Shown piece by piece: positions 34,599 through 63,933 of a stretch of 64,000 bases of DNA. Origin of the DNA: Escherichia coli. Its GTDB lineage: Bacteria; Pseudomonadota; Gammaproteobacteria; Enterobacterales; Enterobacteriaceae. Both the position numbers and the translations under genes were made by a program. Position 1 is the first letter of the stretch; each line of letters begins with the position of its first letter. The stretch is from the NCBI RefSeq assembly GCF_029227855.1, contig NZ_CP074356.1. One strand, written 5' to 3'. The notes beneath the pieces are model-generated. The model was not told where the DNA came from. It did not search any database and was given only the letters and a program-made list of their open reading frames with translations.

Positions 34599-34618
34599 TC
34601 GGTAAGATGCTTTGTGAG

Positions 34619-34645
34619 AAGGGCCGCGAAAGCGGCCCTTTTTTT
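34619..34645. terminator. Rho-independent terminator after tktA, shared with the convergent SPFH gene
   Basis: gggccgc-gaaa-gcggccc followed by ttttttt; the SPFH gene stop overlaps the T-run. Confidence 0.7.
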
Positions 34646-35552
34646 ACTTAGTAGAGATAAACGGAACTGTACTGCCGGGGATCATGGTATCGGGTAGCTT
34701 ACCGTCCCAACGCTCAGCAGTGGTGAGGGCAACAAGTCCGGGATTATCCCGCAGAGCTTCACCGCGCAGGCGGATCGCTTCTGCTTCAGCCGCACTTTTT
34801 AAACGAATAGTTTCAGCCTCTGCCGCGCCTCTTACGCGAATAGTCTCAGCTTCTGCTTTGGCTGCCGCCAGTTTACTGTCTGCTTCTGCCTGGGCCTGAG
34901 TTACCGCTATTTGCGCCTGGATTTTCTCTGTTTCCAGATTTTGCTTACGTGTGGCAATGGCGACTTCTGCTTTCATTCGATCTTCAATCGATTTTTCATA
35001 AGCGTCAGAAAAATCAATATTTTCAATCTGAACACCATCAATCACCACCGGGCCAACAACGGCTTTACGCATTGCATTTTGCAGATCCTGAACCAGTTTT
35101 GTACGATCCTGTACCGCGCTAATGGCTGTATATTGCCCGAAAACGTTCTCCAGTTGGGTTGGCAGCTGGCGGACGATCAGACGCTCTTTTAAAGATTCAA
35201 TGGTGTTGTAGGTGGTATAAACCGCGCCTGCTTCTGAAGGTTTAATGTGGAAGCTGACTGATACTGTCATTTGTGCCGGTTGCTGGTCGCGGCTGTAGGC
35301 CTGTAATCCCTGATAAACCACAGCCTGATTACGCGTGGAAATTTTCTCCACGCTTTCCATAAAAGGGATCTTAAAACCCAGACCCGGCTCGGCAACTTTT
35401 ACGATTTTTCCGTAGCGCAGCAAAATGCCGCGTTCACCTTCATTAACGGTGTAATACGAGAGAAATGGCAGCACAACCACGGCAAGCACGCCAATGACGA
35501 TAGCAATAGATTTTTGTGGGCGAAATGAGGTTATTGAAACAGGTGCTTTCAT
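34644..35552 (-). CDS. SPFH/band-7 (prohibitin/HflC-like) membrane protein with C-terminal coiled-coil repeats (302 aa from MKAPV)
   Basis: ORF 34644..35588; N-terminal TM helix (IAIVIGVLAVVVLPFL), SPFH-like core, then Ala/Glu-rich repeats AEAETIRVRGA/AEAETIRLKSA/AEAEAIRLRGE. Start set at the Met preceded by the AGGAAG RBS. Not recognised as a K-12 gene at this position. Confidence 0.75.
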   Translation of the reverse strand: MKAPVSITSFRPQKSIAIVIGVLAVVVLPFLSYYTVNEGERGILLRYGKIVKVAEPGLGFKIPFMESVEKISTRNQAVVYQGLQAYSRDQQPAQMTVSVSFHIKPSEAGAVYTTYNTIESLKERLIVRQLPTQLENVFGQYTAISAVQDRTKLVQDLQNAMRKAVVGPVVIDGVQIENIDFSDAYEKSIEDRMKAEVAIATRKQNLETEKIQAQIAVTQAQAEADSKLAAAKAEAETIRVRGAAEAETIRLKSAAEAEAIRLRGEALRDNPGLVALTTAERWDGKLPDTMIPGSTVPFISTK

Positions 35553-35928
35553 ATGAATCTTCCTTGAGTAAAGTGGGGAATATGTCACATGAGGTGAGGA
35601 GAAAATAGCCGACAGGTGAGAATTCAGAATCTATAAAGGGGGATAGCGAAAAAACATTGCATTAGAAAAGTATGCTTTCGGATATTCAATAAATAAATGG
35701 CGATATGCATCACAAATACAATAACAAACAAAATATTGATTTTGTGATAAACATACCAAATACAAAGTTGACTTTAAAAATATCAATTTCATGTTGTTGT
35801 TATTTAAAGTTTTATTATTTTGACTAATGAGGTTTTTCTTCTCGCATGCCCAATTGCTTTCATTAAACCGCACGAGTATTTTATTTTTACCGCCGGACGG
35901 TACCCTAAAAATAAAATAAGGATAATTT

Positions 35929-36372
35929 ATGCGGCTTATTGATTATTTTCCAGAATCATCAATCTCAGTTATACATTCAGCAAAAGATTGGCAGGAAGCT
36001 ATCGATTTCTCGATGGCATCATTGCTGGATAAAAACTATATCAGCGAGAATTACATTCAGGCAATTAAAGATTCCACCATTAACAATGGCCCTTATTATA
36101 TTCTCGCGCCAGGTGTGGCAATGCCTCATGCGCGACCGGAATGTGGGGCGCTTAAAACCGGGATGTCTTTGACGTTACTTAAACAAGGCGTTTATTTTCC
36201 GGGGAATGACGAACCGATTAAATTACTCATCGGGCTTTCTGCTGCCGATGCCGATTCGCACATTGGCGCTATTCAGGCGTTAAGTGAATTACTGTGCGAA
36301 GAAGAAATACTCGAACAACTCTTAACAGCATCATCAGAAAAACAATTAGCGGACATTATCAGCCGCGGATAA
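35929..36372 (+). CDS. cmtB: Cryptic mannitol-type PTS enzyme IIA component
   Basis: 147-aa ORF MRLIDYFPESSISVIHSAKDWQEAIDFSMASLL... PTS EIIA(Mtl) fold with active-site His region. Confidence 0.88.
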   Translation: MRLIDYFPESSISVIHSAKDWQEAIDFSMASLLDKNYISENYIQAIKDSTINNGPYYILAPGVAMPHARPECGALKTGMSLTLLKQGVYFPGNDEPIKLLIGLSAADADSHIGAIQALSELLCEEEILEQLLTASSEKQLADIISRG

Positions 36373-62730: not shown

Positions 62731-63933
62731 ATGCAAAGTGTTGATGTAGCCATTGTTGGTGGCGGCATGGTGGGGCTGGCGGTTGCCTGCGGCTTACAGG
62801 GGAGCGGCTTACGCGTTGCCGTACTGGAGCAGCGCGTACCGGAACCTCTGGCGGCGGATGCACCACCACAACTGCGCGTTTCGGCTATCAATGCCGCCAG
62901 CGAAAAATTACTCACCCGTCTTGGCGTCTGGCAGGACATTCTCTCTCGTAGGGCCAGCTGTTATCACGGCATGGAAGTGTGGGATAAAGACAGCTTTGGT
63001 CACATTTCGTTTGACGATCAAAGCATGGGCTATAGCCATCTTGGGCATATCGTTGAAAATTCAGTGATTCACTACGCGCTGTGGAACAAAGCGCAGCAGT
63101 CGTCAGATATCACTCTGTTGGCCCCCGCAGAATTACAGCAGGTTGCCTGGGGAGAAAATGAAACCTTCCTGACGCTGAAAGATGGCAGCATGTTAACGGC
63201 GCGTCTGGTGATTGGCGCGGACGGCGCTAATTCCTGGTTGCGCAACAAAGCCGATATTCCGCTGACTTTCTGGGATTATCAGCATCACGCGCTGGTAGCG
63301 ACCATTCGCACGGAAGAACCGCATGATGCGGTGGCGCGGCAGGTTTTCCATGGCGAAGGCATTCTGGCCTTTTTACCGCTTAGCGATCCGCATCTTTGCT
63401 CGATTGTCTGGTCACTGTCGCCAGAGGAAGCGCAGCGTATGCAGCAGGCAGGGGAAGACGAATTTAATCGCGCGTTAAATATCGCTTTTGATAATCGCCT
63501 GGGCTTATGTAAGGTTGAGAGTGAGCGCCTTGTGTTCCCACTGACGGGGCGTTATGCGCGCCAATTTGCCGCGCACCGTCTGGCGTTGGTGGGCGACGCC
63601 GCGCATACCATTCACCCGCTGGCGGGGCAGGGCGTTAATCTCGGCTTTATGGATGCTGCAGAGCTGGTTGCTGAACTGAAACGGTTGCATCGTCAGGGGA
63701 AAGACATCGGGCAGTACATTTATCTGCGTCGCTATGAGCGTAGCCGCAAGCACAGTGCGGCGCTGATGCTGGCTGGTATGCAGGGATTCCGCGATCTGTT
63801 TTCCGGTACCAATCCGGCGAAAAAACTGCTGCGTGATATTGGTTTGAAACTGGCCGACACGCTTCCTGGCGTTAAACCACAACTTATCCGCCAGGCAATG
63901 GGATTAAACGATTTGCCTGAATGGCTGCGTTAA
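62731..63933 (+). CDS. ubiI: 2-octaprenylphenol hydroxylase (FAD monooxygenase, VisC, 400 aa)
   Basis: MQSVDVAIVGGGMVGLAVACGLQGSGLRVAVLEQRVPEPLAADAPPQLRVSAINAASE... Confidence 0.92.
   Translation: MQSVDVAIVGGGMVGLAVACGLQGSGLRVAVLEQRVPEPLAADAPPQLRVSAINAASEKLLTRLGVWQDILSRRASCYHGMEVWDKDSFGHISFDDQSMGYSHLGHIVENSVIHYALWNKAQQSSDITLLAPAELQQVAWGENETFLTLKDGSMLTARLVIGADGANSWLRNKADIPLTFWDYQHHALVATIRTEEPHDAVARQVFHGEGILAFLPLSDPHLCSIVWSLSPEEAQRMQQAGEDEFNRALNIAFDNRLGLCKVESERLVFPLTGRYARQFAAHRLALVGDAAHTIHPLAGQGVNLGFMDAAELVAELKRLHRQGKDIGQYIYLRRYERSRKHSAALMLAGMQGFRDLFSGTNPAKKLLRDIGLKLADTLPGVKPQLIRQAMGLNDLPEWLR

Follow-up and report, generated by a model that had tools for sequence, protein, structure and literature searches.

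In the solved SPFH cages, the CC1 helices stand side by side and form the wall. [quoted passage not shown] Within SPFH subfamilies, the length of the coiled coil is variable. Hendecads, the periods of 11 residues, have 3.67 residues per turn and a slight right-handedness.

We analyzed an SPFH gene and the repeat in it within a 64-kb stretch of Escherichia coli DNA (the window). The annotated gene order is tkt, the SPFH gene (minus strand), cmtB and cmtA. The region 34600-35930 is 100% identical at the DNA level to E. coli JNEC-KY178, and the encoded protein is identical to WP_000646928.1 in the RefSeq comparison. The open reading frame list starts the gene at an upstream GTG, and the RefSeq start is an ATG. 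The gene is accessory, being carried by approximately 1,829 of 5,426 complete E. coli genomes (about one third). The gene and the parts of its product are as follows:

34644..35552, minus strand: coding sequence of the SPFH/Band 7 protein (RefSeq "prohibitin family protein"), 302 aa; ATG at 35552, stop at 34644-34646.
35457..35519, minus strand: N-terminal transmembrane (TM) helix, aa 12-32; AlphaFold2 helix and hydrophobic sequence, preceded by K2, R11 and K14.
35010..35456, minus strand: SPFH domain, aa 33-181; Pfam Band_7 at aa 35-210, AlphaFold2 strands and helices, Foldseek.
34746..35006, minus strand: CC1 stalk helix, aa 183-269, 87 residues, predicted to be continuous; AlphaFold2 DSSP, block pLDDT 87-98.
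34647..34745, minus strand: break at N-P-G (aa 270-272) after the stalk helix, a second, short helix (aa 273-281) and the conserved C-terminal tail; AlphaFold2.

The 302-aa protein is a member of the SPFH/Band 7 superfamily. The score of Pfam Band_7 (PF01145) was 105.8 bits, above the gathering cut-off of 23.6 (E = 3.5e-30), and aa 35-210 covered profile positions 2-176 of 176. The AlphaFold2 model, built with 135 homologues (pLDDT 92.4), contains helices at aa 12-32, 183-269 and 273-281, a mixed alpha/beta region at aa 33-181, and an extended tail after the second of the two C-terminal helices. In this model and in the Foldseek comparison, the architecture is that of a cage subunit, with an anchor, an SPFH domain, a long CC1, a short CC2 and a C-terminal tail. 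Foldseek gave a probability of 1.00 to chains of HflC/K, PHB1/2, erlin, stomatin, QmcA and flotillin, and the top solved-structure matches were HflC, HflK, QmcA and the prohibitins. In the tail, W282, G284, L286, P287, P292 and P297 occupy invariant or near-invariant columns among the 135 homologues. From the likeness to the solved SPFH cages, the C-terminal segment would form the cage cap. The positive-inside rule suggests that the N-terminus of the TM helix is inside. The preliminary description of this DNA had placed an 11-residue repeat in frame inside an SPFH gene, as part of a C-terminal helical stalk. This assignment agrees with the Band_7 match and with the continuous helix predicted at aa 183-269 (pLDDT of the model, 92).

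The best PDB matches were E. coli HflK/HflC (HflC, E = 4.5e-14; Foldseek, E = 2.7e-17). These proteins and the 302-aa protein have in common the N-terminal TM helix, the SPFH domain, the long CC1, the short CC2 and the C-terminal tail, and by analogy the topology is probably the same, with the bulk of the protein in the periplasm. The HflK/HflC equivalog cut-offs were not reached for any of the four NCBIfam models TIGR01932, TIGR01933, NF008259 and NF008181; in descending order, the scores and their cut-offs were 60.7/134.4, 53.9/427, 37.7/159.4 and 35.7/660 bits. We therefore rejected an identity with HflK/HflC, the scores being far under the cut-offs (60.7 versus 134.4 bits for HflC and 37.7 versus 159.4 bits for HflK). 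Furthermore, unlike hflK/hflC, this is a single gene without a paired partner, it does not adjoin hflX or ftsH, and it is accessory. Prohibitins PHB1/PHB2 and the bacterial "p-prohibitins" (SPFH4, Hinderhofer et al. 2009) resemble the protein in the RefSeq name, in the PHB1 alignment over aa 32-256 and in the common cage-subunit fold, but the identity to PHB chains was only 17-21% in the structural alignments. As in flotillin (reggie), a long helix with repeated A-E-A-E motifs and without heptads comes after the SPFH domain. The NCBIfam FloT model aligned weakly to aa 191-266 (E = 0.0019; 17 bits against a family cut-off of 700), and Foldseek matched the flotillin chains 9bq2 and 9l3g. In contrast, the wall helix has 186 residues in flotillin and 87 here, and flotillin forms hetero-oligomers that are attached through lipidation and a hairpin, whereas this protein has an N-terminal TM helix.

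The repeat lies at the C-terminal end of the predicted 87-residue helix. In codon register, it consists of three units, preceded by a degenerate fourth:

34860-34892, minus strand: unit Z, degenerate hendecad QAEADSKLAAA, aa 221-231; codon-register table, 19/33 nucleotides identical to unit A.
34827-34859, minus strand: unit A, hendecad KAEAETIRVRG, aa 232-242; extra relative to two-unit orthologues, whose 33-nt gap aligns here.
34794-34826, minus strand: unit B, hendecad AAEAETIRLKS, aa 243-253; codon-register table.
34761-34793, minus strand: unit C, hendecad AAEAEAIRLRG, aa 254-264; orthologous to the last unit in all relatives.

The three imperfect 33-bp units that had been described on the plus strand at 34771-34869 are present exactly as written. 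The peptides given for them (AEAETIRVRGA / AEAETIRLKSA / AEAEAIRLRGE) are also correct and correspond to aa 233-265; the DNA that encodes them is 34758-34856, 13 nt off the coordinates of the nucleotide units but in the same periodic array. In codon register, the DNA identities were 23/33 for A/B, 20/33 for B/C and 19/33 for A/C (overall 58-70%). In the register of the preliminary description, they were 22/33 for units 1/2, 22/33 for units 2/3 and 15/33 for units 1/3.

A repeat search found a three-copy family with spacings of 33 and 33. Self-matching at lag 33 was scanned in 99-nt windows (66 comparisons) at 63,902 positions of the 64-kb stretch. The maximum, 44/66, was obtained at window starts 34755-34797 and reached nowhere else (mean 17.7, sd 3.8), and the strongest lag-33 self-similarity spans 34755-34895. 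The periodic signal thus exceeds chance. Within 34701-34960, no other lag exceeded 35. Exact runs at lag 33 reach at most 8 nt. Tandem Repeats Finder (TRF) at a minimum score of 30, the kind of check that the preliminary description had proposed, did not call a period-33 array in the gene, as expected because the units are only approximately 67% identical. Thus, the units are too diverged for the slippage-prone tandem repeat that had been suggested. A plus-strand open reading frame at 34684-34899 (71 aa) overlaps the array. We rejected it as a shadow of GCN-rich codons, since 168 of the 172 nucleotide differences found in the Escherichia comparison below are at position 3 of the minus-strand frame.

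We then asked how much of the DNA identity is accounted for by the protein. As a null, synonymous codons were resampled with the amino acids fixed. The B/C pair had 20 identical positions against 20.8 expected, and the A/C pair had 19 against 22.0. The DNA identity of these two pairs is fully explained by their common amino acids. For A/B, 23 identical positions were observed against 19.0 expected (P = 0.014, uncorrected for six comparisons). The array was also compared among E. coli (two alleles), E. whittamii, Escherichia sp. and E. albertii. No amino-acid difference was found in the 55-aa array region across these four species, and the pairwise nucleotide differences were those 168 of 172 at codon position 3. 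Orthologous units of different species were identical at 27-33 of 33 positions (24/33 in one case), versus 19-24 of 33 for paralogous units within a genome, and no concerted evolution of the units was seen in this comparison. Since the changes are mostly at position 3 and orthologs are closer than paralogs, the periodicity is kept at the protein level and the units are not homogenising each other. These results show that the repeat is primarily a protein-level periodicity under purifying selection.

The length of the helix was investigated in the family. When 1.84 billion cluster representatives were searched exhaustively, 5,844 relatives were obtained, and among the best 150 of these, 136 representatives (50%-identity clusters) were measurable. 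Helix length was taken as the distance between two conserved residues, the F of FSxAYE and the W of AExWxG, using MAFFT anchor columns. The F-W distance was 79 residues in 17 of the 136, 90 residues (the mode) in 72, 101 residues (the E. coli class) in 22, and 112 residues in 3; distances of 83, 94 or 105 residues, the -7 or +4 series, were found in 14. The single +11n series (79/90/101/112) therefore comprises 114 of 136 representatives (84%), a sample that is not phylogenetically independent and overstates the number of independent indel events. Among the non-modal sequences, 42 of 64 differ from the mode by a multiple of 11, where chance would give 1 in 11. The 11- and 22-residue indels are located at aa 219-241, inside the array, and the 7-residue deletions and 4-residue insertions at aa 202-215.

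In the alignment of 135 sequences, most sequences have a gap at unit B, and the periodicity was therefore taken from the 72 sequences in the modal class, which align without gaps. The autocorrelation of Ala/Gly was r = 0.73 at lag 11, 0.57 at lag 22 and 0.36 at lag 7. For basic residues it was 0.50 at lag 11 versus 0.11 at lag 7, and for acidic residues 0.38 versus 0.11. Large hydrophobic residues showed no clear 11-residue periodicity in these 72 sequences. Thus, the signal of period 11 is carried by Ala/Gly and charged residues. The family consensus is A-E-A-x-A-I-R-x-K-G-E, with the last units reading AEAxAIRxKGE. An 11-residue periodicity in a continuous predicted helix, together with length changes by whole periods between homologues, identifies the repeat as hendecad (11/3). 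As in the described hendecad coiled coils and stutters (Lupas/Gruber), 11 residues correspond to three turns, and length changes of 11n, 7 and 4 are the classical phase-preserving steps. Two differences are apparent: a many-helix wall would be expected here instead of a bundle of 2-5 helices with a hydrophobic core, and the periodicity resides in Ala/Gly and charged residues instead of large hydrophobic ones. Literature searches found no paper joining SPFH proteins with hendecads and nothing on the RefSeq protein accessions. Ala/Glu repeats and a variable coiled-coil length are already known in SPFH proteins, and length classes in steps of 11 are an expected property of hendecad helices; for this SPFH subfamily, these classes appear not to have been described before.

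The number of units in homologues was counted from the residues that separate the motifs AEVAIATRKQ and LTTAERWDG. Family-wide, it ranges from one to four in steps of 11 residues. Two units (70 residues) were found in Pseudocitrobacter, Enterobacter, Pseudomonas, Shewanella, Cellvibrio and others, and also in the Klebsiella, Kluyvera, Kosakonia and Erwinia proteins. Three units (81 residues) were found in E. coli, E. whittamii, Escherichia sp. and E. albertii. The two-unit gene of Pseudocitrobacter adjoins tkt and loiP, as in E. coli, and because of this neighbourhood the locus is orthologous. In the DNA alignment with the two-unit orthologue, a clean 33-nt gap falls at unit A. The tail of unit B (CGT TTA AAA AGT) matches that of the first unit in Pseudocitrobacter (CGT TTA AAA GGG). 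A third unit is also present in Yersinia pestis, Y. similis, Brucella/Ochrobactrum, Rhizobium alvei and one metagenomic lineage (P0097/P0098), and in each of these the additional unit is similar to the one beside it.

Within Escherichia, the single exception in copy number is a lineage of E. albertii. Its 280-aa allele, observed in GCA_001514595.1 and in the independent sequencing run ERR162681, lacks 66 bp. The loss is in register, between 9-nt direct repeats (GGCAGAAGC) two units apart, and its left end is unit Z. Thus, a genuine repeat-mediated contraction has occurred within a species at least once, in E. albertii. Some other apparent length variants were set aside. A metagenome contig (L002) 96% identical to E. 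coli carries a 33-bp deletion of one unit, and it was distrusted, since the gene has a further 18-bp deletion at another site and the tkt of the contig is split. The ENA singletons P0002, P0003, P0007, P0008, P0017 and P0041 have scattered in-frame deletions and look like assembly or annotation noise, as does P0006, a singleton of the NCBI third-party annotation. These results show that unit number changes rarely, on the time scale of genera, plus the one within-species deletion in E. albertii.

We consider that the best explanation is an ancient structural hendecad repeat of the SPFH stalk helix, with one old duplication fixed in Escherichia (probability approximately 0.8). The extra Escherichia unit most likely arose by duplication within the A/B pair. 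As judged from the sequences, a single in-frame 33-bp duplication would have occurred before the split of E. coli, E. whittamii and E. albertii and would have been fixed since. Unit A ends in RVRG and unit B in RLKS; with 3 of these 4 residues different, the boundaries of the duplication are not exactly reconstructible. The trace of the duplication in DNA is weak, consisting of one pair of 33 nt with the uncorrected P value given above.

The periodicity might instead be a mere side effect of convergent selection that favoured an amphipathic helix rich in Ala and Glu, in which case no duplication took place and the extra 11 residues came from an unrelated insertion. The entire helix is indeed rich in Ala, Glu and Gln, and the B/C and A/C identities do not exceed what amino acids and codon usage predict. 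However, the insertion in Escherichia is exactly 33 nt long and in register, it repeats AEAETIR residue for residue, and the A/B identity is above the codon-usage expectation. In addition, the extra units of Yersinia, Brucella/Ochrobactrum and Rhizobium alvei each resemble their own neighbour (19-23/33 at the DNA level in the presumed pairs), and from these sequences they are apparently independent gains. An origin without duplication is thus improbable.

Alternatively, three units could be ancestral and the two-unit state of most relatives the outcome of repeated loss. In-register deletion is demonstrated in E. albertii, and three units also occur in Yersinia, Brucella and others, both in favour of this scenario. 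In contrast, most of the diverse representatives belong to the two-unit class (72 of 136, the mode), and two units are found in all close relatives outside Escherichia as well as in Pseudomonas, Shewanella and Cellvibrio. The three-unit lineages differ in unit sequence, which is consistent with separate gains, and the leftover A/B similarity in DNA suggests that the A/B pair is younger than B/C. We therefore regard an ancestral third unit as having little chance of being correct.

The preliminary description had also suggested that copy number may vary between strains. In-frame tandem repeats with such behaviour are familiar from the streptococcal alpha C/Rib and M proteins, in which long units of nearly identical DNA vary among isolates. 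The array described here is similar to these in that the units are tandem and in frame, the structure is extended and the length is set by unit number. Unlike them, its units are 33 nt long, 58-70% identical and invariant in 1829 genomes. To count the array, a 141-nt query across it was searched against complete E. coli genomes at E <= 1e-48, a threshold that only an unbroken alignment can pass. The three-unit array was uninterrupted in 1829 of the 1829 genomes that carry the gene, in one place in each, with an identity of at least 95%. This strict census was added since the ranking of a two-unit query could in principle mask a divergent two-unit allele. With the two-unit allele of the metagenome contig as query, no such allele was found in the complete E. 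coli genomes; only two-piece alignments spanning the query plus 33 nt were obtained. With a 261-nt query, the span was exactly that of the query in 58 of 60 evenly sampled genomes. One exception, strain Esc22, is a pseudogene with a 1-bp frameshift. In the other, FDAARGOS_1260, the match ends near the array edge; repeat instability was rejected as the cause, and the end is due to an IS1-mediated deletion. Thus, copy-number polymorphism is absent from the complete E. coli genomes, and three units are fixed.

Accordingly, the variability that had been suggested exists between species (two versus three units, and the 66-bp loss in E. albertii) but not between E. coli strains. The outcome for the conditions attached to that suggestion, namely a DNA identity of units under about 60% or homologues of constant length, was likewise mixed: adjacent units are just above 60% identical, and the length of homologues is variable, although between species only. 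The array in E. coli is neither a variable-number tandem repeat nor a contingency locus by adjacent-unit DNA identity or by copy-number polymorphism within the species. An active repeat of the contingency type, in which slippage or unequal recombination makes stalk length strain-dependent, could draw on the tandem in-frame arrangement, the E. albertii deletion seen in both a genome and an independent run, and the one-unit deletion in the metagenome contig, but this contig is of doubtful quality, the units are diverged, negative in TRF and free of concerted evolution, and the invariant census largely refutes it for E. coli, leaving it a very slight chance.

Under the hendecad reading with one old duplication, the function of the array can be proposed by analogy with the solved SPFH complexes. 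The 99 bp encode three consecutive hendecads in the C-terminal third of the predicted CC1 of a membrane-anchored, SPFH/prohibitin-like protein. The CC1 helices of many copies would be arranged side by side as the wall of a closed cage, and a period of 11 residues in three turns is the one expected for the slightly right-handed wall of parallel helices in the solved cages. One extra unit would add three turns, about 16.5 Å if the helix is straight, and would leave the helical phase downstream unchanged. Thus, the downstream segment that may form the cap would not be rotated. We propose that the steps of 11, and the minor steps of 7 and 4, occur because they preserve the phase. For this protein, closed-cage assembly, a right-handed wall and an effect on cage height are inferred from the known cages.

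A more far-reaching possibility is that the stalk helix acts as an evolvable ruler. Cage height would then step by approximately 1.6 nm per hendecad whenever the AEAEA array underwent one of its rare in-register duplications or deletions. In this case the extra unit of Escherichia, together with the apparently independent gains in Yersinia, Brucella and Rhizobium, would be adaptive instead of neutral, fitting the cage to the size of a client or of the periplasm. We regard this idea as doubtful at present.

For annotation, the array is a structural repeat, lies in an accessory SPFH gene that is already annotated, and does not need a flag for phase or size variation. For comparative work, its value is that stalk length in this subfamily differs almost only by whole hendecads, with a minor -7/+4 class. 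Natural variants with two units (Pseudocitrobacter), with three units (E. coli) and with two units fewer (the E. albertii lineage) are usable for relating helix length to the geometry of SPFH cages.

The SPFH gene, which is encoded on the minus strand between tkt and cmtB, was present in about 1,829 of the 5,426 complete E. coli genomes. Its occurrence is a presence/absence polymorphism, and the K-12-type genomes (DH1) and O157 are without it. The following features were identified in and around the gene (window coordinates).

34599-35928: tkt-cmtB interval carrying the SPFH gene
34621-34645: tkt terminator hairpin, GGGCCGCGAAAGCGGCCC with a T run
34684-34899, plus strand: antisense ORF over the coding repeat, 71 aa, Ser/Ala-rich
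About 35302-35319: small indel spot in a loop of the SPFH domain, aa 79-84 (YQGLQA)
35553-35928: divergent intergenic region between the SPFH gene and cmtB, 376 bp, very AT-rich

The tkt-cmtB interval of DH1 is 313 bp, and only the 82 bp adjoining cmtB are common to the window. Only these last 82 bp of the region between the SPFH gene and cmtB are common to the K-12-type genomes. The remaining 231 bp in DH1 bear no relation to the window and contain another tkt terminator.

In the window, the SPFH gene converges on tkt, and its stop codon lies within the tkt terminator hairpin. Strain BEC1-S17-ESBL-09 (locus L089, 300-692) carries here two tandem copies of an inserted 174-bp unit, which contains REP-like palindromes and ends with a copy of the tkt terminator hairpin. 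Further strains show spans that exceed that of the window by 163-175 bp, as would be expected from one copy of the unit. Since 0 and 2 copies were confirmed and we infer 1 copy from the longer spans, the copy number of this unit near the SPFH gene stop may be variable, unlike that of the coding repeat (three 33-bp units in the SPFH gene).

Within the gene, the E. albertii type strain possesses a 9-bp tandem duplication at the loop spot (two copies of CAAGGGTTG, giving QGLQGL and a protein of 305 aa). At the same spot, 18 bp are deleted in a metagenome contig, L002. In E. coli FDAARGOS_1260 (locus L006, 1748-2725), the SPFH gene is adjoined by IS1A at the point equivalent to window 34868. This strain has lost the N-terminal three quarters of the gene together with cmtB, cmtA and the beginning of yggP. 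The position of this break beside the coding repeat array looks coincidental. The 71-aa plus-strand ORF was rejected as a shadow ORF, produced by the GCN/GAR codons of the opposite, coding strand; substitutions track the minus-strand frame.

The SPFH gene of the window (34644-35552) is only 92% identical in DNA to a second E. coli allele (locus L015), and the E. coli and E. whittamii genes are 92.7% identical, about the same distance as between the two E. coli alleles. Because the alleles share 92% of their DNA sequence, while the window protein is 98% identical to the cluster-representative protein P0001, the sequence comparison suggests strong purifying selection acting on deep allelic lineages or on alleles exchanged among Escherichia species.
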